This document shows positions 5,797 through 63,601 of a stretch of DNA of 64,000 nt, piece after piece. This stretch comes from an uncultured Candidatus Saccharibacteria bacterium (lineage in GTDB: Bacteria > Patescibacteriota > Saccharimonadia > Saccharimonadales > CAYUUR01). How positions within the stretch are numbered: position 1 is the first letter of the stretch; each line of letters starts with the position of its first letter. Under the pieces are notes generated by a model that was not told the DNA's origin, did not search any database, and saw only the letters and a program-made list of their open reading frames with translations. The stretch is from NCBI GenBank assembly GCA_964448075.1, contig CAYUUR010000003.1, forward strand, positions 133,610 to 197,609. The letters run 5' to 3'. Made by a program: the position numbers and the translations under genes.

Positions 5797-6936
5797 CTAC
5801 AGGCTACTGGCGACACGGAGCAACTGGTCGCTATTGAGGTTAGAGTTGCCATCAATCTGATACCATACGCCACCACTTACCCATGTGGCGCTCGAATTGT
5901 TGTACATGTAAATAGTGCGGCCTGCTTCCTGAAACGTTTGGTATGGCTGGTTGAGCGTGGCTACAAAGTTGTTTAAGAGCGATTCGCTGTTCCATTCCGA
6001 AGGACGTTGCGATATCTGAAAATTACGTCCGTCGGTATTCGATGCAAAGTTAATAGTAACGACTCCGGGAGCAGCCTGTACCGGCCCGCTCATTGCAAAA
6101 CCGGATGGTTGATATTCTGGCAAGCGTGCACTAAAACCAGCTTTGTTAGCGGCCATACGGACGGCAATGTTCGGGATATTCTGATAAGCAAAGAAGCCAA
6201 CGAGTAGTAGTACGGACAAGCTAGCAGCAGCAGTACTTACAAAGCGGCTACTTACACCAAGTTTGTGGGCGACTTTGTGTTTTGTTTTTGTCTTAGCTAG
6301 TTTGTGTTTGGTATGACTGGTTGATTTTTCCATGGCCGCAGCGATTGTAGATTGCGCTCCGCTGCTGTGTTTGGCAGCCACTGGTCGTGTGCTCGCTGTG
6401 AGCGGTGGTGCTTGTCTGTGTGCTGGTGCGACGTGTGCGGGCATTGGGGTGACGGGCAGATGCTTCGTGGTCTTAGTGACCGGCTTCGGACCGAATCCAA
6501 ACCGACTAATCAACGGACTCTGTGCGATCTTGTGCGCCTGTTGGGCACGTTTTTCTTGGATTTGAGCAGGAGTAGTTACTGCATGGTCTAGGGGGGTCGA
6601 TACTGCCGAGAATGCTTTGGTCTGTGTAGCGTTGGAGGGTTTCTTTACCGCGCTACGCATAAGGGTCTTTGCAGCTTGCGGCTTACGGGTGGCGTGACTT
6701 GGTTTTTGCGCGCTCGTGGCTGGTTTGACCTTTGGTGTGGGATGTACAGACACGGCCGAGCTACGGACGAATCCATCCATGTTTGTGCCCGCTGTGCGCT
6801 GAGCAGGCACTTTTTTGCCAGTTGCATTCTGATGAACGGTTACCTTTGACTGCGGCGCTGTCTCTGTCAACATCTTACCACTGACTGCGTCGTATTTTTT
6901 GCCGTTCAGTTCAATTACCGATTTGGTATGTGCCAC
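5797..6936 (-). CDS. hypothetical single-pass membrane protein (basic Ala/Pro/Thr-rich N-terminal half, TM, C-terminal globular domain)
   Basis: Long uninterrupted ORF; TM segment LSVLLLVGFFAY; no family recognised. Confidence 0.5.
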   Translation of the reverse strand: MAHTKSVIELNGKKYDAVSGKMLTETAPQSKVTVHQNATGKKVPAQRTAGTNMDGFVRSSAVSVHPTPKVKPATSAQKPSHATRKPQAAKTLMRSAVKKPSNATQTKAFSAVSTPLDHAVTTPAQIQEKRAQQAHKIAQSPLISRFGFGPKPVTKTTKHLPVTPMPAHVAPAHRQAPPLTASTRPVAAKHSSGAQSTIAAAMEKSTSHTKHKLAKTKTKHKVAHKLGVSSRFVSTAAASLSVLLLVGFFAYQNIPNIAVRMAANKAGFSARLPEYQPSGFAMSGPVQAAPGVVTINFASNTDGRNFQISQRPSEWNSESLLNNFVATLNQPYQTFQEAGRTIYMYNNSSATWVSGGVWYQIDGNSNLNSDQLLRVASSL

Positions 6937-9972: not shown

Positions 9973-10057
9973 GGGCGAGTGGCGGAACTGGTATACGCGC
10001 ACGACTCAAAATCGTGTTCCTTACGGATTGAGGGTTCGATTCCCTCCTCGCCCACCA
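9973..10057 (+). tRNA. tRNA-Leu(CAA), class II with long variable arm, CCA encoded
   Basis: Acceptor GGGCGAG/CTCGCCC; anticodon stem CACGA/TCGTG with loop CTCAAAA; T-arm GAGGG-TTCGATT-CCCTC; ACCA end. Confidence 0.9.
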
Positions 10058-10091: not shown

Positions 10092-10220
10092 TGGTGAATG
10101 AAGCGAATCGAACCCATACGGCGCAGCCGCGGTCCGTTCATGAGGAGCTCGCGCAGGAGCTTGCTCTGAGTAAGCGACGAAATGCGAGGGTAAGGCCTGA
10201 GGTCCCTCCTCGCCCGCCAA
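10092..10220 (+). repeat. tRNA-linked mini-element (E-type, no cargo) ending in a copy of the tRNA-Leu 3' end
   Basis: Starts with tggtgaatgaagcgaatcgaaccc, a diverged inverted copy of the tRNA 3' half. Contains core gcgcaggagcttgctctgagtaa. Ends with tccctcctcgcccGccaa (10203-10220), 17/18 identical to tRNA 10041-10058. Confidence 0.6.
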
Positions 10221-15793: not shown

Positions 15794-17224
15794 TTAGAGT
15801 GGTTCGCCGGGTTTACGACATTCAGGGAGGAGCTTTGGGCTAAGGCCAAGTTTATCACGCGTTTCACAGCCAATGCCTTGTTGGCTGGCATAGACTTGGT
15901 TGTATGTGTTGTCAGCGTAAATGTAATAGTAGCTTGCTCCAGAATCGCAACCACTTTCAGATAGGACGAGCTGATCTGTTCCGTCGCGAGCCACAAGTGA
16001 TACGCGTCTGAAGTTATTGTCTATACAATCAAACGTCACGCGTTGTTCCATGAAATCAGTAATCTTGCTTGGCGTACCTTCGGGGGCAAACACAAATGCA
16101 GCAGCCTGAGTGTCGGGATTGACGGCCGTACCATTTTGACTTGGGAAGTTAACGAGAGAAAAGAGAAAATTCTGGCTCGTGACTGGTAGTTTAAGTTGCG
16201 TGACGACAGCGTCTGGCCCAGCCAGTTCATATCGTTGTGGCGGATCCTGTCCTGCAACGCTAAAGTTATTCACCCAAAAGCCCCGAGTCGTGAACACGGG
16301 CGCAGGATAGTCCATGGCATGATTGTTAATGCGATAGACTTCGTTGAGTTGCTGGTTGTTAAGTTTGCCTACTTTGAATGTATATGATGGATTAGCTGTA
16401 TCGCTTCCGAGTATGTTCGTATAGAAGGCTTGCATACCGGGATCGTATGAAATGGCAACGTCGGTCGTTACTTCAAGTGCGCCATCGGGGTTCATGGAAA
16501 AATCACTGATATTAATCTCTTGTGCTGGTCGATTCACGCCTGTGGAAACGAGTACTAGCTGGCCTGAATTCATCGCTTCCTCATCGCCTTTCGCATACTG
16601 CATATAGACGTTGTCGCCATCGCTACCGACAATTTGCGCGTATTGATCAGGAGTATTGATAGTGCCTATCGTTTTACCATCTAAACTCACTATTGAGATC
16701 GATCGGCTTGACGCCTCTTCTTCATACGTATCGGTAATTTTTACCAGTGCATCGTTCCCATGCCATAAGTACTGGGTGCTCAGATAGTCGTTGTCTTTTG
16801 GCAGCGTGTTGACTACTGCAAAATTACTGTCCAAGACGACTTGTGATTGCTCAGAGAACCTCTCGGAATACGTATAACCTGAGGCCAGATACTTGGTCTG
16901 ATCTGGGCTTGGGACTAAGTTGGTTACTTCGCCCAAAGATTCGGGTATGGAGTATTGCTTGCGCTCACCGGTTTCGAGGTTTTCGCACTGAAGCAAAGGC
17001 CCATTCAATGACACGCAGACCACCTTGTTATTGTTAGTAATATACTGCTTCCCGCGTGCTGTTTCACTGTCTTGCGCCGTTGGCTTAGTTGCGTACAAGT
17101 AGATTCCTACCCCTAAAGTAACGAGAGCGAGCAAAATCATACTGATCACAACCCATTTATTGCGTGGAGTTGCTGGTAGCTTTATCTTCACTGGTTCGTG
17201 CTGATGCGATGTGTCAATACTCAT
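15794..17224 (-). CDS. hypothetical membrane-anchored extracytoplasmic protein
   Basis: 476-aa ORF; N-terminal TM (WVVISMILLALVTLGVGIYLY) followed by a large soluble region with Cys pairs. Confidence 0.5.
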   Translation of the reverse strand: MSIDTSHQHEPVKIKLPATPRNKWVVISMILLALVTLGVGIYLYATKPTAQDSETARGKQYITNNNKVVCVSLNGPLLQCENLETGERKQYSIPESLGEVTNLVPSPDQTKYLASGYTYSERFSEQSQVVLDSNFAVVNTLPKDNDYLSTQYLWHGNDALVKITDTYEEEASSRSISIVSLDGKTIGTINTPDQYAQIVGSDGDNVYMQYAKGDEEAMNSGQLVLVSTGVNRPAQEINISDFSMNPDGALEVTTDVAISYDPGMQAFYTNILGSDTANPSYTFKVGKLNNQQLNEVYRINNHAMDYPAPVFTTRGFWVNNFSVAGQDPPQRYELAGPDAVVTQLKLPVTSQNFLFSLVNFPSQNGTAVNPDTQAAAFVFAPEGTPSKITDFMEQRVTFDCIDNNFRRVSLVARDGTDQLVLSESGCDSGASYYYIYADNTYNQVYASQQGIGCETRDKLGLSPKLLPECRKPGEPL

Positions 17225-17306
17225 GTTTATAGTGTAGTTCTCAAGGCGCGATAAACAAACCTCAATTGTTGTTTTTTGCCCGAACTACTCTATGTAGAAA
17301 ACCGCG

Positions 17307-17573
17307 TTATATTGTAGTATCGTTTTTCTTTCCGAGATCGAACACTTTGGTAATCATCCACGCAAGTAAGCCAAATACTATTATTGCCACGATACTTTCG
17401 ATATCAATTCTTGATACACCGTAAGTAGTATCAATGCGGAACAAACCTCTGAAAGGTGCTACAAACGGACCTGTTATCGAATAGATCAAATCAGCAAAGG
17501 TATTAGAGCGATTTGCCCCGAGTAGTGAGAATATAAAACGAATGCCCAGCAATCCTGCCAAGATACCATACAT
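17307..17573 (-). CDS. YggT-family membrane protein
   Basis: 88 aa with two TM segments; FADLIYSITGPFVAPFR pattern typical of YggT. Confidence 0.6.
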   Translation of the reverse strand: MYGILAGLLGIRFIFSLLGANRSNTFADLIYSITGPFVAPFRGLFRIDTTYGVSRIDIESIVAIIVFGLLAWMITKVFDLGKKNDTTI

Positions 17574-17660
17574 GAGGTAGATTATTTTCTCACCCTTTAT
17601 GACGCTTTCGTCTGTACTGTGATGACTAACGGACTGTTTTTCTATCTCCGCGACTATCCC

Positions 17661-17689
17661 TTGACATCAAGGAACAGATGAGCTAAACT
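17661..17689 (+). promoter_or_regulatory. sigma70-like promoter for the transposase gene
   Basis: TTGACA (17661-17666), 17-nt spacer, TAAACT (17684-17689); ATG at 17696, so the transcript would be almost leaderless. Confidence 0.35.
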
Positions 17690-17695
17690 GTAAGT

Positions 17696-18589
17696 ATGAA
17701 AGTTGAACGGTACACAATAGATACGTTTCATCTGGAGTTTCCTGATGATGACACTTGTCTTGACTACATGTTCAACCTGGCCTACGGCAATCTCCCAGCC
17801 TGCCCTCAATGCGGTGTTGTTGAGCCCCGTTACTACCGCGTTAGAAACCGCAAATGCTACGCCTGTAATGACTGTGGCTACCAAATCAGCCCTCTGGCTA
17901 ATACTATCTTCCATAAGTCTGAAACCCCACTGACTAAATGGTTCTACGCCATCTACCTGTTCAGTGTTGGTAAAAACGGCGTATCAGCTAAAGAAATAGA
18001 ACGACACTTAGGCGTTACGTATAAGACCGCCTGGCGCATGGCTAAACAAATCCGCCTGATGATGCAGCAAGGTGGCTCTCCACTATCAGGTGTTGTTGAG
18101 GCTGATGAAACCTACGTAGGCGGTAAAACTCGCCGTGATAAAATGTACGATAACAAAACAGCCGTTGTAGGCATTGTTGAAAAGCAAAAAGGCACTGGTC
18201 AGGTTAAAGCTTTTGCAACTAAACAGGCTGACGCTACCGTAACGCTACCGTTCCTGCGAGCCAACATTACACCTGGCTCAACGCTACACACTGACGACAG
18301 TCGTATCTACTCGCGCGTTAAACGTGACTTCTCTCATGAATTCGTTAATCACAGCAAGCTGGAGTACGTAAAGTCCGGTGTTCACACCAACACCATTGAA
18401 GGCTTTTGGGGTCAGCTTAAGCGATCACTCGACGGTACGTACCACTGTGTTAGTCCGAAGTATCTTCAGCTGTACGTGAACGAGTTCGTTTACCGGTATA
18501 ACCACCGGCACGTCGCGGCTTTCCCGGCTTTGATTCAAGTGGCTGCGCAGCCCGTTCTAGTATCTTCTCGAAATCTTCCTTCGCGTTAG
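17696..18589 (+). CDS. IS1595-family (ISXO2-like) DDE transposase
   Basis: N-terminal zinc ribbon (CPQCG...CNDCG), HTH (ISAKEIERHLGVTYKTAWRM), DDE blocks EADETYVGG / LHTDDSRIY / NTIEGFWGQLKR. Confidence 0.85.
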   Translation: MKVERYTIDTFHLEFPDDDTCLDYMFNLAYGNLPACPQCGVVEPRYYRVRNRKCYACNDCGYQISPLANTIFHKSETPLTKWFYAIYLFSVGKNGVSAKEIERHLGVTYKTAWRMAKQIRLMMQQGGSPLSGVVEADETYVGGKTRRDKMYDNKTAVVGIVEKQKGTGQVKAFATKQADATVTLPFLRANITPGSTLHTDDSRIYSRVKRDFSHEFVNHSKLEYVKSGVHTNTIEGFWGQLKRSLDGTYHCVSPKYLQLYVNEFVYRYNHRHVAAFPALIQVAAQPVLVSSRNLPSR

Positions 18590-18686
18590 GATTGCGCTCA
18601 GATTCTGGCAGGCTTTCCTCCCACTGCTTGATACTCTTGCGGACTTCATCGTTGCTTTTAGGCATGTTCCTAGTATACCGCACCAA
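18450..18686 (-). CDS. small hypothetical ORF overlapping the transposase 3' end
   Basis: 78-aa ORF (MPKSNDEVRKSIKQWEESL...); the last ~45 codons overlap the transposase gene antisense, so it may be a truncated or chimeric gene. Confidence 0.25.
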   Translation of the reverse strand: MVRYTRNMPKSNDEVRKSIKQWEESLPESERNPNAKEDFEKILERAAQPLESKPGKPRRAGGYTGKRTRSRTAEDTSD

Positions 18687-18840
18687 TCAAAATCACCTGG
18701 TATAGTATGCCAATCGGTTGGAATACTATCTGACAAAGCTTCATCTGTTAACTACTCTTATTTGAATTCCTTTACTATACAACTACAGCACCAGAGTTAC
18801 ATAACATTAACCTTACCCACCGACACCCAAGCTATCTGGT

Positions 18841-19095
18841 TTTACTTTTCTCTATATTTTTCCTCTTTCTTTTCTCCCTCTCTTTCTATATAAATATAGA
18901 GGAGAAGACATAAAGTGAATGATGAATGATTGTTAGTAGGTATATAAGTATGGCTGTAGGTAGTTGTTTGGGTGTAAGTATAGTGAATTATATCATCAGG
19001 TGTGTTAGTGATAATTTAGCTGGTTATGTGAGTAATTGTGGTAATGAGTTGAGCCTTGGTTTGGTAAGTATTGGAGTAAGTTAGTAGGTAGATGT
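18841..19095 (+). repeat. strand-asymmetric ori/iteron-like tract (polypyrimidine arm, AT palindrome, C-depleted GT-rich iterons)
   Basis: 18841-18890 is almost purine-free. The palindrome tctatataaatataga is centred near 18893. 18901-19095 has only 7 C by my count and at least 7 copies of GT(A/G)(A/G)GT(A/T). It lies directly upstream of the replication-relaxation gene. Confidence 0.5.
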
Positions 19096-20004
19096 ATGCG
19101 TGATCTAGCAATCAATGAAGCTGAAGTTAATAAATCTAGCAAAGTGGATGCAGTGAAGTACCGCAGACCACTAAACCCTCAGCAGCTGAAAACCCTGCAC
19201 CTACTGTATTGGTACCGTTTCTGCACAGCCAAGCAACTAGCTCGTTCGCTGGACAAATCCAGCCATAAGGCCATACAAAACAAGCTGCAGATACTTGAAG
19301 CGCAAGGCTTTATTGGCAAACGCTATGACACGTCCTACAAGCTTGTCGGAAGACCAGCTGAGTACTTTATTACTCCCAAAGGCGTCCGTGTACTTGAAAA
19401 GGCCAAACCAAATACTACCAACCAGTGGGCAACCAAAAGCCTGTACAAGAACAAGACGGTGTCTGGTGACTTCCTGAGGCATTGCGTCACCGTAACTGAA
19501 GTATCTCAAAGACTGAGAGCTATATATGGAGACAGCAACAAGCTCCGTAGATTCTCCAAAAGCTATATGGCAGAGTTTAGCCACTATCCCCAATGGACAC
19601 CGGACTTACACCTTGAGATACCAGGCAAAGGTGAAACGCCCGCCAAACACTACTTTGTAGACATTTGGGATGGTACCAAGCCGTTCTTTGTCAGTGTCAG
19701 GAAGGCACGGAACTATGTGAACTTCAAAGACAGTGGCGGCAAGGATGGCACTGAATGGCAGGAGGATGAACAGTTTCCGGCAATACTGGCCATATGCCAG
19801 AACGAGCAAACCCAGAAGAAGCTAAACCGGCAGATGAGGCGTATTTTAGACGAGCAGTGGGATGAGGAGCTGGTGTTTGCTACAACGACAAGGCAGCAGC
19901 TTATGGAAGCTACCAAACCAGCACAGAAGGTGTGGCTACAGATTCACTCGGACGAGGAGCCAACCAAACGCTCTTTGAACCAGCTATTTGCACCAAAAAG
20001 CTAA
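19096..20004 (+). CDS. replication-relaxation family protein (plasmid-type winged-helix)
   Basis: LNPQQLKTLHLLYWYRFCTAKQLARSL...KLQILEAQGFIGKRYD matches the N-terminal wHTH pattern of Replic_Relax proteins. Confidence 0.6.
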   Translation: MRDLAINEAEVNKSSKVDAVKYRRPLNPQQLKTLHLLYWYRFCTAKQLARSLDKSSHKAIQNKLQILEAQGFIGKRYDTSYKLVGRPAEYFITPKGVRVLEKAKPNTTNQWATKSLYKNKTVSGDFLRHCVTVTEVSQRLRAIYGDSNKLRRFSKSYMAEFSHYPQWTPDLHLEIPGKGETPAKHYFVDIWDGTKPFFVSVRKARNYVNFKDSGGKDGTEWQEDEQFPAILAICQNEQTQKKLNRQMRRILDEQWDEELVFATTTRQQLMEATKPAQKVWLQIHSDEEPTKRSLNQLFAPKS

Positions 20005-20294
20005 TGGTGTAGAATATACGTAAGCAGTATTCATATACTGAGTGTAGTGGAAGCAAAAACTATGAAAACTACGTATACATTAGAGGGGAATAATCAAACC
20101 GGCACTATCAGTGGTTTAGATTGCGCATCAGCGCAATCTCGTCTCTCTCTCTCGGTTAGCGCAAGCGCTAACCGCACCGATAGCCCTAAAACCGTCAGCA
20201 GCCGTCTCTATTTTGGACGGCTAATTTTATTTCCTGGAGTAACAGCAGTGCAAGCCTAATATAATCAAAAACCAGCAAGAATAACGAACCAAGA

Positions 20295-21635
20295 ATGGAA
20301 CCCAACGTGGAAACCCTGACCCAAACCATTAACATCGTCATCGGCGGAGACGGCACCGGCAGCCTGGCAGATACTGGCGTCTCCCTCCTGCCGCTCATAG
20401 CCATTGCCGTAATGCTCATAGCTTCCGGTATTCTTTCGTGGCGCTTTGCCCACCGCTCCCACAAACTCAGCTTCCGTAGTCTCGGCGTCTTTGCCTTCTT
20501 TGCCCTCGCAGGCCTTGGTTTGACCCTCAACCTCTCAGCCGTCACCGCTGCTCCCACTCTCACCCTCGGTACTAACCAAGACACGCTCACTGTCACCGTT
20601 CCCGAAGGCGGAGGTGAAGCCAGCACGACTACCACCCTCACATCAGGTACCACCAACCCTGAGGGCTATACCCTCACGGCAGCACTAGCTGAAGCCGAGC
20701 CAGGCATAGCTATTAAGCTCAAGGGTGGAGACATCACTACCAGCACAGCCCTCGAACCAGGCGCTCCTGCCTTAACGCTCAAAACCACTGAAAGTGCCAG
20801 CTCAAACGACACCACTGAAGTAACGCTGGACTTCACCATTGATGGTACGGTAACCTCAGGCACCAAAGAACTCAAGCTGGCCTATACGGTTACCGACAAC
20901 GAGCCAACCGGTCCGGCTACCCTCCAAAGCTTCACCACTGAGGCCTGCGATGCACTACCTGCCTACACCGGCAGCAATGAAGACGCCGTTATCACCCTGA
21001 CCGACAGTAGAGACGATCAAGCATACCAGGTCGCCAAACTAGCCGATAACAACTGCTGGATGCTCGACAACCTCAAGCTGGGCTCTACTACGGGCACCAT
21101 AGAACTGACACCAGAGGATTCTAATGTCGGCAGTAACTTCACGTTGCCGCAGCTCTACAGCGGTTATTCCGGTGACTATCTGAGCTATGACGACCCACAC
21201 GCCTATGGCCCGCTCCCCGGAGACACCGGAGAAGGCGAAACCAACTACGGCTACTTATACAACTGGCCTGCCGCCACTGCCGGTGAAACAAGAGACAGCC
21301 ATGACGAAACCGCAGGCGATGCACCATACTCCATTTGTCCGGCCAATTGGCGGCTGCCAACCGGTGGTAGTGGCGGTGAGTTCGCAGCGCTCTATACCGC
21401 ACTCGGTAGCAGCCCTGCCCAGTGGAATTACCCAGGACCGTTTCAAGGCACGTTCGCGGGCTACTGGTGGGAAGGCTTCAACGATCAGGGTGACTACGGC
21501 TACGTGTGGTCGAGTTCGGCCTACCCGGGCAATCCTGACTACGCGTTCAACGCGTACTTCGGCGCAGGTGAAGTGGGCCCAGCCGTCTACGGCGATCGGA
21601 GCGCTGGGCTGTCTGTCCGCTGTCTCTTAAATTAG
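20295..21635 (+). CDS. DGR target (variable) protein: N-terminal TM segments, Thr-rich region, Fib_succ_major (FISUMP)-like region, C-type-lectin-fold VR at the C-terminus
   Basis: DSRDDQAYQVAKLADNNCWMLDNLKLG (TIGR02145-like). The C-terminal 57 codons are the VR partner of the TR at 23067-23236. Confidence 0.85.
   Translation: MEPNVETLTQTINIVIGGDGTGSLADTGVSLLPLIAIAVMLIASGILSWRFAHRSHKLSFRSLGVFAFFALAGLGLTLNLSAVTAAPTLTLGTNQDTLTVTVPEGGGEASTTTTLTSGTTNPEGYTLTAALAEAEPGIAIKLKGGDITTSTALEPGAPALTLKTTESASSNDTTEVTLDFTIDGTVTSGTKELKLAYTVTDNEPTGPATLQSFTTEACDALPAYTGSNEDAVITLTDSRDDQAYQVAKLADNNCWMLDNLKLGSTTGTIELTPEDSNVGSNFTLPQLYSGYSGDYLSYDDPHAYGPLPGDTGEGETNYGYLYNWPAATAGETRDSHDETAGDAPYSICPANWRLPTGGSGGEFAALYTALGSSPAQWNYPGPFQGTFAGYWWEGFNDQGDYGYVWSSSAYPGNPDYAFNAYFGAGEVGPAVYGDRSAGLSVRCLLN
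21453..21622 (+). repeat. DGR variable repeat (VR) including the 3' IMH-like invariant end
   Basis: Gap-free 170-bp alignment to 23067-23236. 19 mismatches by my count, all at TR adenines. The last 21 nt, cgctgggctgtctgtccgctg, are identical. Confidence 0.9.
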
Positions 21636-21648
21636 CGTCAGCTAATTC

Positions 21649-21720
21649 CGGTACCCCACAAAGCGAGACTGGCGCGAAGGCGTGACCACGCCTGAGCCCG
21701 TCGAGTCGACTGGGGTACCG
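21649..21720 (+). promoter_or_regulatory. GC-rich inverted repeat immediately downstream of VR (DGR-associated stem structure)
   Basis: cggtacccca (21649-21658) is the perfect reverse complement of tggggtaccg (21711-21720). An inner hairpin ggcg-tgacca-cgcc is present. Confidence 0.55.
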
Positions 21721-21743
21721 TCGCAGGATTTTATGATACGGAC

Positions 21744-22835
21744 ATGGCCATGAATACTTCAGACGAACGCGCCACGTGGCTCGCCAAAGAACTCAGGAAG
21801 GCGTACGTAGCTGCGCGGCGCGGCAAGACCAACAAGCCCGAGGTTGAAAAGTTCGATGCTATCGCCAAGCTTGAGTTGCCAGCGCTGGCCAAAGAAATTC
21901 ACTCGCGCAGCTATACACCCCGTCCTTCAACAGCGTTTATCGTGAACAAACCCGTCAAGCGGGAGATATTCGCCGCCGACTTCCGCGACCGGGTGGTGCA
22001 TCATTTTCTGTTCAATCAGGTCAACAAGTGGTGGGACGCCCGGTTTATCGAAGATAACTATAGTTGCCGCGTTGGCAAAGGTACGCTCTATGGTATCCGC
22101 CGTTTAGACCATCATATCCGCTCGGTGAGCCGTAACTATACCCGGCCAGCCTACGTACTCAAGCTGGATCTGCAAGGGTACTTTATGAGCTTGGAGCGCA
22201 AAAAGCTGTACGCGCGGGCAATGTGGGGGCTGGACAGGCAGTTTCCCGAAAGAGGCTATGCCTATCAGCTGTGTAAGTTTCTCTGGAAGGTGATAATTTT
22301 CAACGACCCGCTCAATAAGGTGGAATTCAATTGCCCGCGGAGCGCCTGGAAAGGCTTGCCGCCGAGCAAAAGTCTGTTCCACCAGCCCAAAGGGCGCGGC
22401 ATCGCCATCGGCAATCTGACGTCGCAGCTGCTGAGCAACATCTATCTCGACCAGCTGGATCAGTTTGTAACGCTGGAACTAGGATTTAAACATTATGGGC
22501 GCTACGTTGATGATTTTTATATTGTTTCTGAGAGCAAAGCCGAGTTGGTTCAGGCTAGTAGTACTATAGAGGCGTACGTCACAGGTCGACTCGGTCTTGT
22601 TTTGCACCCTCATAAACGACACCTGCAAGAGTGTCATAAGGGGGTTGCGTTCTTAGGCGCGGTGATCTATCCGCACCGCATCCACCCCGGCAAACGACTG
22701 AAGCGCAACCTGCTGGCAGCACTCTCTCAGGAGGATTGCTCAAAAGAAACCGAAGCGTCATATAAGGGATTAGTGAAGCATTACAAGCATCATAAACTAC
22801 TAAAAGGTGTAGCTATTGAACGGGGGGTACAATAG
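21744..22835 (+). CDS. DGR-type reverse transcriptase
   Basis: IGNLTSQLLSNIYL ([I/L]GxxxSQ, DGR RT signature) and GRYVDDFYIV (YxDD catalytic box). Located between VR and TR. Confidence 0.9.
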   Translation: MAMNTSDERATWLAKELRKAYVAARRGKTNKPEVEKFDAIAKLELPALAKEIHSRSYTPRPSTAFIVNKPVKREIFAADFRDRVVHHFLFNQVNKWWDARFIEDNYSCRVGKGTLYGIRRLDHHIRSVSRNYTRPAYVLKLDLQGYFMSLERKKLYARAMWGLDRQFPERGYAYQLCKFLWKVIIFNDPLNKVEFNCPRSAWKGLPPSKSLFHQPKGRGIAIGNLTSQLLSNIYLDQLDQFVTLELGFKHYGRYVDDFYIVSESKAELVQASSTIEAYVTGRLGLVLHPHKRHLQECHKGVAFLGAVIYPHRIHPGKRLKRNLLAALSQEDCSKETEASYKGLVKHYKHHKLLKGVAIERGVQ

Positions 22836-23066
22836 AGGCTATGCTTTGCCAGGCTCAGGGGCGGGCGGTGCTTGGCGGCTTTTTGCTTACTGCCCGAGGA
22901 TCGGCCTGGCGTATAAGCATATCTAAGAGACAATACTCACTAGCTTTGACTTGTTTCCTAGCTAGTTCTATAGGGGCAGCGCCGCCAAGACCTCCCTGCG
23001 TTTGGTACGCTGGACGCAGTACAACGAGTAGTATTGATACACGTGCGCTGGTCGGGGGCCTTCAGT

Positions 23067-23236
23067 TTCGCGGGCAACTGGTGGGAAGGCTTCAACGATC
23101 AGGGTGACAACGGCAACGTGTGGTCGAGTTCGGCCAACCCGGACAATCCTGACAACGCGTTCAACGCGAACTTCAACGCAGATGAAGTGAACCCAGCCAA
23201 CAACAACAATCGGAACGCTGGGCTGTCTGTCCGCTG
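23067..23236 (+). repeat. DGR template repeat (TR), Asn-codon (AAC) rich
   Basis: Reads ...GDNGNVWSSSANPDNPDNAFNANFNADEVNPANNNNRNAGLSVR in the VR frame. Differs from VR only where TR has A. Confidence 0.9.
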
Positions 23237-23672
23237 ACTCTTAGAGCATATTTTGTAACAGTTTTGCACTCACTACACCTCTATTGGCTCATCTTCCTCT
23301 GAGCCGGTATTTTAGCACTTTTTGCTTCATTCGTCTTTGTTTTAACTGTTCCTTGACGTTAGGGGATACTCTCGTCTATCTCTGTATTGCCCTGTTGAAT
23401 TTTTTCTGTACGTACTTCTTGTTCTTGGTCCGCCATCAGTTCTCCTTTAGTGCCCGTTGTTAGTTGTCCATCTAGTATGTAGGCTCTCGATCGTTTAATC
23501 TGTACAAAATGTCACATACTGTTTTTGGGTTGCGTGCTATTAAAAATGGCCTACGAAAGCGTAAGGCCATTCAAGTGTGATTCATATGCAGTTAACACTG
23601 CCAACTAAGTGAAGGCGTCATTCATTTGTTGAGATCAAACGCAAGTCATCCTATGTAAACAAGCTTGTTTCG

Positions 23673-23770
23673 TGGCGGAGAGAGAGGGTAACGCGCAGCT
23701 GCTTCCGTTCTCGGAGCAAGCTCCTGTGAGCGGACTTGCTGACCGAACCCGGCTCGAATCCCTCTTCTTT
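23673..23770 (-). repeat. tRNA-linked mini-element (E-type, no cargo) ending in a copy of the tRNA-Ser 3' end
   Basis: tggcggagagagaggg (23673-23688) is identical to tRNA-Ser 23816-23831. The core (tRNA-sense) is GGTTCGGTCAGCAAGTCCGCTCACAGGAGCTTGCTCCGAGAACGGAAGCAGCTGCGCGTTACCC. The 5' GAAGAGGGATTCGAG can pair with the 3' CCCTCTC. Confidence 0.6.
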
Positions 23771-23780
23771 AGAGACAAGA

Positions 23781-23811
23781 AAAACGGCCACACTGATGTG
23801 TGACCATTTTT
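23781..23811. terminator. bidirectional terminator-like hairpin after tRNA-Ser
   Basis: aaaac-ggccacac-tgat-gtgtgacc-attttt. Confidence 0.6.
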
Positions 23812-23815
23812 CTCC

Positions 23816-23907
23816 TGGCGGAGAGAGAGGGATTCGAACCCTCGAGACGTTTTGCAACGCCTACACGCTTTCCAAGCGTGCTCCTTCAGCCACTCGGACA
23901 CCTCTCC
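23816..23907 (-). tRNA. tRNA-Ser(GGA), class II, CCA encoded
   Basis: Reverse complement GGAGAGGTGTCCGAGTGGCTGAAGGAGCACGCTTGGAAAGCGTG...GAGGGTTCGAATCCCTCTCTCTCCGCCA; anticodon loop TTGGAAA. Confidence 0.9.
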
Positions 23908-38891: not shown

Positions 38892-39069
38892 TGCCTTTTG
38901 GGGTCGGGTAATGCACAGCTGCACTCGTTCTCGGAGTAAACTCCTGCGAGCGATCTTGATGACCGAACCGACAACCTGCGCTAGCTAAAGCTATCGCGTT
39001 GTCTTGTTCGGACCCAGCCTAGAAAGAATAAAAAAAGACCCTCAGTTGAGGATCTTGTTTCATTGGCTC
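38892..39069 (-). repeat. E-type mini-element plus terminator plus minimal tRNA-Asn-like remnant
   Basis: tRNA-sense block GGTTCGGTCATCAAGATCGCTCGCAGGAGTTTACTCCGAGAACGAGTGCAGCTGTGCATTACCC has 12 differences in 64 nt versus the tRNA-Ser-linked copy. It ends CCGACCCCAAAAGGCA (compare tRNA-Asn CCGACCCCGGGAGCCA). Terminator at 39036-39056; tggctc at 39064-39069. Confidence 0.55.
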
Positions 39070-63526: not shown

Positions 63527-63601
63527 TGGCTCCCGGGGTCGGATTCGAACCGACAACCTCGAAGTTAACAGCTTCTTGCTCCACCATTGAGCTACCCGGG
63601 A
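63527..63601 (-). tRNA. tRNA-Asn(GTT), CCA encoded
   Basis: Reverse complement TCCCGGGTAGCTCAATGGTGGAGCAAGAAGCTGTTAACTTCGAGGTTGTCGGTTCGAATCCGACCCCGGGAGCCA; anticodon loop CTGTTAA. Confidence 0.9.

Follow-up and report, generated by a model that had tools for sequence, protein, structure and literature searches.

The DNA stretch analysed here, 64,000 nucleotides (nt) of an uncultured Candidatus Saccharibacteria bacterium (hereafter the window), carries behind its tRNA-Ser(GGA) gene a short element, positions 23673-23772 plus the terminator up to 23815, that is one unit of a family of tRNA-tail cassettes, each approximately 100-170 nt long and situated behind tRNA genes of Saccharibacteria. It is a tRNA-tail duplication element, here enzyme-less, structured and tailored to its tRNA, and the family to which it belongs is apparently undescribed. 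The units share one plan, in which a direct copy of the tRNA tail is split at positions 57/58 of the T-loop by a conserved hairpin, and a repeat of the tRNA tail forms the outer end. Moreover, they occur in arrays, show turnover of core types, display one clean insertion polymorphism and decay of the outer tail, and have no linked enzymes. These features are tentatively explained by a non-autonomous cassette that enters at the A58-A76 segment of a tRNA gene and regenerates the tRNA, a reading that is held with slightly less than even confidence. The element is unrelated to the priming of the diversity-generating retroelement (DGR) that lies next to it.

Genomes of Saccharibacteria are tiny. 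A tRNA-tailored, structured element that stands behind many of their tRNA genes and preserves its hairpin by compensatory substitutions would represent either selfish DNA of great economy or, within the candidate phyla radiation (CPR), an aspect of tRNA biology that has gone unrecognised, and the covariance model and coordinates described below are ready for experiments in cultivable strains.

The unit behind tRNA-Ser and the plan of the family

An earlier inspection of the window (the sequence-only reading) had noticed a 16-nt repeat of the tRNA-Ser tail, identical at 16/16 positions with 127 nt between the copies, and a search of the window bears this out. The repeat, TGGCGGAGAGAGAGGG, is found at exactly two sites, 23673-23688 and the 3' end of tRNA-Ser at 23816-23831, and there is no third site in the whole window even when up to three mismatches are allowed; 0.22 matches are expected by chance, and two matches were obtained in 0 of 100 shuffles. 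The proximal copy is the last 16 nt of tRNA-Ser(GGA), and the distal copy constitutes arm C3' and the outer end of the unit (Table 1). The same reading had placed a terminator hairpin and an "E-type core" between the two copies, and both are present: the terminator stem is followed by a T-run, and CAGGAGCTTGCTCCGAG, located at 23710-23726 on the minus strand, recurs in the window at 10154-10170 on the plus strand and, with two mismatches, at 38930-38946 on the minus strand. Furthermore, the tRNA-sense sequence that had been quoted for 23673-23767 is exact, and the suggested closing helix between the 5' AGAGGG and the 3' CCCTCT is present in the minimum-energy folds of both RNA and DNA.

In the Ser unit, arm B agrees with the antisense of the tRNA tail at 17/18 positions and belongs to an inverted repeat (I1) with arms at 23751-23793 and 23798-23840 that are 72% complementary; the AGAGGG mentioned above is a remnant of this arm. 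The match of arm C5' stops at tRNA position 57, and the core that follows is matched by the covariance model R1 at 23696-23740 on the minus strand (57.0 bits, E = 3.6e-14), with the 17-mer at 23710-23726 as its tip. On the tRNA-sense strand the sole non-Watson-Crick pair in the terminator stem is a G.U pair, and this terminator is common to the window and two related loci, L226 and L228 (L followed by a number labels the loci of retrieved relatives). A perfect 14-nt palindrome, AAACAAGCTTGTTT, lies at 23657-23670, 2 nt outside the end of the unit, and may be the remnant of an older terminator that was displaced by the cassette.

Table 1. Positions of the units, their parts and neighbouring features in the window
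Feature	Position	Strand	Evidence or score
tRNA-Ser(GGA), CCA encoded	23816-23907	-	ARAGORN; Rfam tRNA, 51.8 bits
Palindromic intrinsic tRNA terminator (A-tract, stem 23786-23793 / 23798-23805, T-tract)	23773-23815	.	Sequence; terminator scan
Arm B, inverted (antisense) copy of T-arm and acceptor 3' part	23751-23772	-	Inverted repeat I1
Arm C5', GGGTTCG, direct copy of T-stem 5' strand and T-loop	23744-23750	-	Longest-match analysis
Conserved core hairpin within the direct copy, at T-loop 57/58	23689-23743	-	Covariance model R1
Arm C3', CCCTCTCTCTCCGCCA, direct copy of tRNA positions 61-76	23673-23688	-	Sequence comparison
Sister unit behind tRNA-Leu(CAA) (tRNA at 9973-10057)	10092-10219	+	R1 at 10140-10184, 49.5 bits
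Orphan sister unit, arms matching tRNA-Asn	38900-39019	-	R1 at 38916-38960, 57.9 bits
IS1595-family transposase	17696-18589		
Replic_Relax protein	19096-20004		
DGR target gene	20295-21635		
DGR variable repeat, 3' end of target gene	21453-21629		
Reverse transcriptase of DGR	21744-22835		
DGR template repeat	23067-23243		

Relatives were sought by scanning one genome per species with the 17-mer query CAGGAGYTTRCTCYGAG, by which at least 119 loci were listed; the figures for the family apply among the matches listed. Copies with similar surroundings are present in at least 54 of these loci, 46 of which are titled Saccharibacteria, Saccharimonadales or Saccharimonas, the remainder being mostly other Patescibacteria bins. 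The family thereby comprises at least 60 copies in approximately 50 Saccharibacteria/Patescibacteria assemblies and, among the matches listed, is associated with 14 tRNA isotypes (Ser, Leu, Met, Gln, Arg, Asp, Tyr, Lys, Glu, Gly, Phe, Ala, Pro, and Asn). For 39 units, the distance from a preceding same-strand tRNA to the core is 84-125 nt, and arm C3' copies up to 19/19 nt of the tail of that neighbouring tRNA, CCA included.

Read in the sense of the tRNA, the order of a unit is tRNA, terminator, arm B, hairpin, arm C5', core, and arm C3'. The A- and T-tracts of the terminator prolong its palindrome to ACCA/TGGT. Arm B, which begins 31-64 nt (mostly 33-40) past the end of the tRNA and usually opens at TGGN, is an inverted copy of the final 24-32 nt of the tRNA, with an identity to the antisense tail of 69-100% (approximately 77% overall). 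The median alignment score of the inverted arm is 22.5 for tRNAs with a unit, 14 for tRNAs without, and 13.5 for shuffled controls; inverted arms are confined to unit-bearing tRNAs. After arm B follows a short hairpin, very frequently with a C-GNA-G loop. Arm C5' repeats, in direct orientation, the variable region and the 5' strand of the T-stem, and its match ends at position 57 in 13 units and at position 58 in 8. Next comes the core of 55-90 nt, and arm C3' then resumes the direct copy from position 58 (13 units) or 59 (10 units) to A76. Hence the direct copy of T-arm and tail is split at T-loop 57/58 by a hairpin with the tip CAGGAG-YTTR-CTCCGAG, and the overlap between the two halves at this junction is only 0-2 nt. 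The tail repeat reaches up to 19 nt elsewhere in the family, or approximately 55 nt if the terminator is counted.

Three matches to R1, scoring 50-58 bits, are present in the window, and everything else scores 12 bits or less. One of the two sister units stands behind tRNA-Leu(CAA), where the sequence-only reading had pointed to an element of like architecture with no reverse transcriptase nearby; the R1 match identifies it as a true relative, its plan is identical to that of the Ser unit, its arm C3' reads tccctcctcgcccGcca, and it has an orthologue in L226. The other is an orphan with arms that match tRNA-Asn: its arm C5' contains a 14-nt exact match, AGGTTGTCGGTTCG, and its arm C3' reads CCGACCCC. 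The tRNA-Asn gene of the window (63527-63601) is on the same strand as the orphan, 24.5 kb upstream of it, and has no unit adjoining.

A search of Rfam 15 with the window at the gathering threshold, and with the element at E <=10, returned tRNAs only, and the same search with two well-formed copies from L041 at E <=5 returned nothing beyond tRNAs. ARAGORN and the Rfam tRNA model likewise detected the true tRNAs and not the unit. No counterpart was encountered in full-text literature searches on tRNA-linked repeats, structured RNAs and integrases of Saccharibacteria and the CPR, which is not proof of absence.

Covariation in the core and conservation between orthologues

The core was aligned without gaps over 45 nt in 58 distinct copies. 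The proposed hairpin, of the form CA-GGAGCUUGCUCC-GAG, consists of a stem, a 1x1 mismatch, a 2-bp stem, an RCA/GA internal loop, and GGAG-Y opposite R-CUCC round a UU loop. In this alignment 93.4% of the cells are paired, compared to 75.1% after shuffling, and cells in which both sides have changed number 128, where 40 are expected. The covariation score of 0.475 (0.147 for shuffled alignments) was reached by none of 500 shuffles, and it fell to 0.10 or less in a control in which the pairing partners were slid by 1-3 columns. The tip is closed by C-G in 29 copies and by U-A in another 29, and mixed combinations do not occur though the search pattern permitted them; copies found later with the model added further compensatory tips, GGAAU...AUUCC and GGAAC...GUUCC. 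Folding of the single Ser copy as RNA or single-stranded DNA gave z-scores of -0.39 and -0.75, respectively, corresponding to a stability no greater than that of shuffled sequences. The evidence for structure is the covariation across copies and not the fold of the lone Ser copy.

The scores of family copies with R1 are mostly 44-60 bits, with degenerate or weak copies down to 20.8 bits, and overlap at the low end with those of other 17-mer loci (chance occurrences and a repeat of Bacillaceae) at 21-33 bits; on 717 kb of unrelated metagenome control loci R1 gave 0 matches. The Bacillaceae repeat is a multi-copy imperfect palindrome of approximately 150 nt in Cytobacillus, Mesobacillus, Metabacillus, and Bacillus (loci L001, L005, L010, L015, L022, L026, L053, L055, L059, L069, L088, L104, and L105), with the same 17-mer, CAGGAGCTTGCTCCGAG, as its tip. 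No Rfam family matches this repeat, R1 assigns it 28-33 bits, and a shared ligand or convergence are both conceivable.

The pairing of arm B with arm C5' (hairpin P1) is predicted in nearly all of 40 folded copies, and a closing stem of at least 6 pairs that joins the ends of the unit is found in 9/22 RNA folds and 4/22 DNA folds. In 31/40 copies, folding is better for the tRNA-sense strand than for the complementary one (p = 8e-5). Substitutions in arm B show a modest excess of those that preserve a G.U pair (C>T, 0.17) over those that yield A.C (G>A, 0.11), and one subfamily of 13 copies has a conserved A.C mismatch where the opposite strand would have G.U. Because of this subfamily the working strand is ambiguous, and the counts of G.U versus A.C do not decide which strand folds. 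True mimicry of a T-loop was considered and rejected, as the positions equivalent to T54/T55 vary among the copies and are not conserved. Identity with a small ribozyme or a T-box was also dismissed, since no matching cores were seen by eye and none are found in Rfam.

Conservation between orthologues was assessed at the Ser and Leu units. Locus L228, which was found via the neighbouring MacB-type permease (74% protein identity), has an orthologue of the Ser unit behind its tRNA-Ser, with 88% identity to the window across element, terminator and tRNA and an R1 score of 34 bits; the flanking genes are only about 70% identical, and the similarity between the two loci ends precisely at the terminus of arm C3'. 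At least three pairs of the unit have changed in a compensatory manner between the window and L228, the tip from GGAGC/GCUCC to GGAAC/GUUCC, CAGC/GCUG to CGGC/GCCG, and UCCG/CGGA to UACG/CGUG, and arm C3' of L228 has drifted to CCCCTCTCCCTCCGCCA. The Leu unit of the window and its orthologue in L226 are approximately 90% identical, compared to approximately 84% for their flanks, and their C3' arms have mutated differently (A73G in the window, A76G in L226).

Together with the core covariation, this conservation argues for the main rival interpretation, which is considered less likely than insertion, namely that each unit is a structured RNA or single-stranded DNA structure of the host that is attached to a tRNA gene, co-evolves with it, and acts as a mimic of the tRNA tail or as an antisense module. 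Candidate partners would be proteins that recognise the T-arm, acceptor or CCA, such as a processing or repair enzyme, a toxin or phage nuclease that is decoyed, or a sensor of tRNA 3' ends, and the units may in that case be phylum-wide regulatory or decoy RNAs specific to tRNAs, one per tRNA. The fixed orientation and distance relative to the tRNA, the better folding of the tRNA-sense strand, the G.U-preserving substitutions of arm B and the closing stem of the RNA folds also fit a host RNA. However, an intrinsic terminator precedes the units, and scans of the surroundings of the Ser and Leu units revealed no promoter-like site. Occupancy is patchy, with no unit at the tRNA-Ser of loci L229 and L230 or beside tRNA-Asn in the window, and tandem arrays, truncated copies and orphans exist. 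Moreover, mutations arise freely in arm C3' of orthologues, even in the discriminator base and CCA. Positions 54-55 of the T-loop vary in the copy, the A.C mismatch of the 13-copy subfamily obscures the working strand, and Rfam holds no such family.

Turnover of units and the insertion model

The clearest sign that a new unit has entered on the tRNA side, with the tRNA rebuilt, comes from L229 and L230. Between tRNA-Leu and a truncated orthologue of the Leu unit of the window, both loci contain an extra block of 177 nt, bounded by two perfect 19-nt copies of the tRNA-Leu tail, that is absent from the window and L226; this repeat-bounded presence and absence is what a duplication of the attachment type would leave. 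The block comprises a new terminator, an arm B, hairpins of another core type and a perfect 19-nt tail copy. It represents a second class of cassette at tRNA-Leu(CAA) (positions 3678-3857 of L229/L230) with a similar plan and an unrelated core, composed of CCGGCCAAC...GTTGGTCGG and GGCTCAC-TTGA-GTGAGCC hairpins. Since R1 does not detect this class, the family recognised by the 17-mer is one of several.

Units also accumulate and turn over at a given tRNA. Three units are arranged in tandem in L033, and two each in L047, L048, and L096; the pair in L047 has diverged cores with compensatory changes, a common derived arm B, and perfect 19-nt tails in both units. Core types are not bound to the identity of the tRNA, as one type is found at different tRNAs and different types are found at the same tRNA (tRNA-Tyr in L028 and L109, tRNA-Ser(GGA) in the window and L002). 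The C3' arms decay independently between orthologues, and truncated and orphan copies exist beside full units. Variant forms include a reduced version with a short core at tRNA-Asp in L027, and a compact form at tRNA-Thr in L028 and L078, in which a long CA...AGCTTGCT...GAG hairpin directly follows the CCA in place of the terminator and is succeeded by a small hairpin and then by 12-13 nt that copy the tail of tRNA-Thr, with no inverted arm. At tRNA-Met in L040 there is a plain tandem duplication of 29 nt of the tail with an 18-nt spacer, without core or inverted arm.

In the favoured insertion model, arm B of a single-stranded cassette would pair with arm C5' and the tail copy, and this pairing would rebuild a duplex image of the T-arm/acceptor segment of the tRNA gene, from which the core hairpin would branch at the T-loop. 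Recombination over the common A58-A76 segment would then insert tail, terminator, arm B, arm C5', and core, such that an intact tRNA with its terminator is regenerated and the previous tail is displaced outward, where it would subsequently decay. The enzyme could be a recombinase supplied in trans; alternatively, DNA of relatives might be incorporated by homology-assisted recombination, with the tRNA body and the tail copy as the two arms. A more far-reaching version, regarded as possible and held less firmly, is that the units form an enzyme-less, tRNA-addressed class of cassettes, in which the antisense tail and the split sense tail serve as address arms and are combined with a conserved hairpin. 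Such cassettes might home into their own tRNA gene in naturally competent, DNA-scavenging Saccharibacteria, through either a folded single-strand intermediate or homology-assisted recombination, with the tRNA always rebuilt. If true, homing without an enzyme of its own would add a novel route by which DNA targets tRNA genes.

Several observations weigh against the insertion model. The mobilising activity is purely hypothetical, as no recombinase, transposase or reverse transcriptase was found next to any unit. Pfam searches of 10 open reading frames (ORFs) beside orphan copies and of 37 ORFs downstream of units detected no integrase, transposase, HUH enzyme or reverse transcriptase, and in the 8-kb stretches in which the family loci were examined, the sole transposase seen is the IS1595-family transposase of the window, which is unlinked to other copies. 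None of the 25 contigs in IMG/VR that matched the 17-mer is family-like; all matches lie in unrelated coding sequence, and therefore an origin from a phage attP site is unsupported. Among the relatives retrieved, no two very close strains form a pair with an empty and a filled Ser site. Locus L226, the closest relative (permease 98% identical, DNA approximately 85%), lacks the block 15890-23772 of the window, including the Ser unit, and keeps the terminator. It was considered as an empty site and rejected: a tblastn search found the last 34 codons of orf476, a gene of this block, retained, and L226 is therefore a derivative of a larger deletion that is silent on mobility. Furthermore, the compensatory changes between the Ser units of the window and L228, and a conservation of the units of approximately 85-90% compared to 70-84% for flanking genes, would be expected of a host-functional RNA. 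Finally, the units have no target duplication of fixed length and no terminal inverted repeats of the transposon type, and the model does not account for the fit of arms B and C5' to every new type of tRNA.

The sequence-only reading had preferred a cargo-less mini-element or attachment-site scar at tRNA-Ser. Its observations of the tail repeat beside an intact tRNA and of the relative at tRNA-Leu stand, whereas the term scar undersells a conserved, covarying cassette with a fixed plan, and neither integrase nor cargo was found in the 47 ORFs. An ordinary integration scar, in which an integrase-borne island was lost and attL, attR and approximately 127 nt were left behind, is accordingly judged improbable. 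Its classic signature is present, with a tRNA 3' segment directly repeated next to an intact tRNA, a variable hot spot lies beyond the unit (discussed below), and the orphan unit with tRNA-Asn arms is situated 24.5 kb downstream of a tRNA-Asn gene on the same strand. However, independent deletions would not yield a covarying core that recurs at 14 isotypes in approximately 50 genomes, and the DNA that varies at tRNA-Ser is located beyond the two repeats and not between them. The absence of an integrase and of family-like IMG/VR matches in the searches described above also speaks against a scar. As to the orphan unit, the stretch between it and tRNA-Asn has a GC content of 0.41-0.46, compared to 0.48-0.52. 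An island bounded by the orphan is possible, but the drop in GC content begins at approximately 34 kb and not at the orphan unit, and the genes at 39-63 kb encode sugar-modifying enzymes, ribonucleotide reductase and nucleoside hydrolase, that is, functions in sugar and nucleotide metabolism. Homologues of the epimerase, used as a probe for an island at tRNA-Asn (39-63.5 kb), provided no usable orthologous locus.

The order of tail, terminator, inverted tail, hairpin and direct tail is also the fold-back pattern expected of a functionless by-product of template switching at the palindromic terminator, in which the palindrome is extended into the tail and copied back, and the core-less duplication at tRNA-Met in L040 demonstrates that tail duplications occur without a core. 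Nevertheless, this process is thought quite improbable as the source of the family, as it leaves unexplained the conserved, covarying core across tRNA types and genomes, the restriction of inverted arms to core-bearing sites, and the derived arm B that two diverged units in L047 have in common. A target duplication of the casposon or DDE type was rejected because the length of the repeat varies and the repeat spans the terminator.

The unit has one or two features in common with each of the nearest known systems and fails at least one defining feature of each. With the attL/attR sites of islands and prophages of tyrosine integrases it shares a repeat of the tail from T-loop to CCA (16 nt here) that flanks an insert and leaves the tRNA intact, and in both cases repeated events lead to tandem arrays with decay of the outer copy. 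The insert of a unit, in contrast, is approximately 130-180 bp and non-coding, with only 127 nt between the repeats here and no integrase found in cis or in 47 neighbouring ORFs, none of the 25 IMG/VR contigs with the 17-mer is family-like, and the unit adds an inverted tail and a covarying hairpin at 57/58, with a core common to 14 tRNAs.

Integron attC sites and the attP(+) hairpin of CTX-phi, which is recombined by the host XerCD, resemble the units in that structure is conserved more than sequence, as the core covariation indicates and as is characteristic of folded single-strand recombination sites. They also form arrays, inverted and direct target-like copies can fold into a duplex image, and no enzyme is encoded. 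The target of the unit, however, would be a tRNA gene and not attI or dif, and a role of Xer or of an integron integrase would be hypothetical. Folding of the unit as DNA is only inferred: C-GNA-G loops are frequent, and energy models favour RNA at least equally.

Like the hairpin repeats known as REPINs and miniature inverted-repeat transposable elements (MITEs), the units are short, intergenic, near terminators, subject to compensatory evolution and dependent on functions in trans, and they are present in many copies, with three in the window and 64 covariance-model matches in the 54 loci. Unlike these repeats, they stand strictly behind tRNA genes in one orientation, with arms tailored to each tRNA. 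They lack terminal inverted repeats, a fixed target duplication and, among the neighbours scanned, a RAYT or transposase partner; their ends are tRNA-specific arms, and the repeat ranges from 9 to at least 19 nt and extends across the terminator.

Finally, tRNA-like RNAs, including viral tRNA-like structures, the tRNA-like domain of tmRNA and the YrlA/Y RNA mimics, have sequences of T-stem, acceptor 3' strand and NCCA in common with the unit, the ends of which are predicted to be able to close into a stem. The unit differs from these RNAs in that tRNA detectors and Rfam miss it, its T-loop is not conserved, and its CCA and discriminator base drift.

The neighbouring retroelement and duplications at tRNA ends

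The Ser unit is the last part of a 7.9-kb block of the window (15890-23772) that contains orf476 (no Pfam match), the IS1595 transposase, the Replic_Relax protein, the DGR, an 88-amino-acid ORF, and the unit itself. The repeats of the DGR are 177 nt each and 89% identical, and the template repeat is located downstream of the reverse transcriptase, overlapping the end of the 88-amino-acid ORF. In L228 and L229 the place of this block is taken by a gene for 254-259 amino acids, which in L228 encodes 259 amino acids, with no DGR or reverse transcriptase within 17 kb. As the block is absent in L226 and another gene is present in L228 and L229, the DNA next to tRNA-Ser constitutes a variable hot spot. 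In L229 and L230 (permease 69% identical) tRNA-Ser is followed by a different terminator and no unit. A metagenome scan with the MacB-type permease for further orthologous loci returned only relatives of 38% identity or less, and the exact ABC ATPase led to a contig that is broken at the tRNA.

As a more speculative alternative, the sequence-only reading had proposed that the plus strand of the element is a primer-binding site, at which tRNA-Ser primes the DGR reverse transcriptase. It had placed the element approximately 440 nt past the template repeat, which agrees with a measured start at 430 nt, and the plus strand of the element indeed opens with TGG and is complementary to the tRNA tail at 16/16 nt. 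This complementarity arises trivially, because it is merely the other strand of the direct repeat, and every member of the family is complementary to its tRNA in the same manner. Nonetheless, no homologue of this reverse transcriptase is present in the 381 kb of the 54 family loci, the sister unit at tRNA-Leu and the one at 38.9 kb have no reverse transcriptase nearby, and the orthologous unit at tRNA-Ser in L228 is kept without any DGR, an observation that the sequence-only reading had itself named as speaking against priming. The proposal was therefore rejected and is regarded as scarcely credible. Published work on the Bordetella phage DGR describes cDNA synthesis there as self-primed by the RNA, beside the template repeat, and not as primed by a tRNA. 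The unit resembles the primer-binding sites of retroviruses and long-terminal-repeat retrotransposons in its 16-19 nt of complementarity to a tRNA 3' end, with a boundary in the T-loop near position 58, and differs from them in that it adjoins the tRNA gene itself and has no association with a reverse transcriptase. A stretch complementary to a tRNA near a reverse transcriptase thus need not be a primer site.

Other small duplications were observed at the tRNA genes of these relatives. Between the terminator and the 3' end of tRNA-Ser, L226 has a 27-nt insertion (6793-6819), TGGCGGAG followed by tcatgcaccatatggtaca, in which a duplication of 8 nt of the tRNA tail encloses a near-palindromic 19-mer, and which resembles the trace of an element that duplicates 8 bp of its target. 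The target duplication of the IS1595 family is 8 bp in length. On the 5' side of tRNA-Ser, insertions in L228 (4579-4760) and L226 (6912-7260) end in a copy of the first approximately 25 nt of the tRNA, which in L228 reads CCTTCAGCCACTCGGACAGCTTCTCC and where the insert resembles a decayed tRNA-Ser-like pseudogene. Duplications thus seem to be drawn to either end of the tRNAs in these genomes. Moreover, L145 (Logan SRR16481186) begins inside tRNA-Ser and the contig of L226 begins inside tRNA-Leu; such breaks of independent short-read assemblies at these tRNAs are consistent with the units acting as assembly-breaking repeats.

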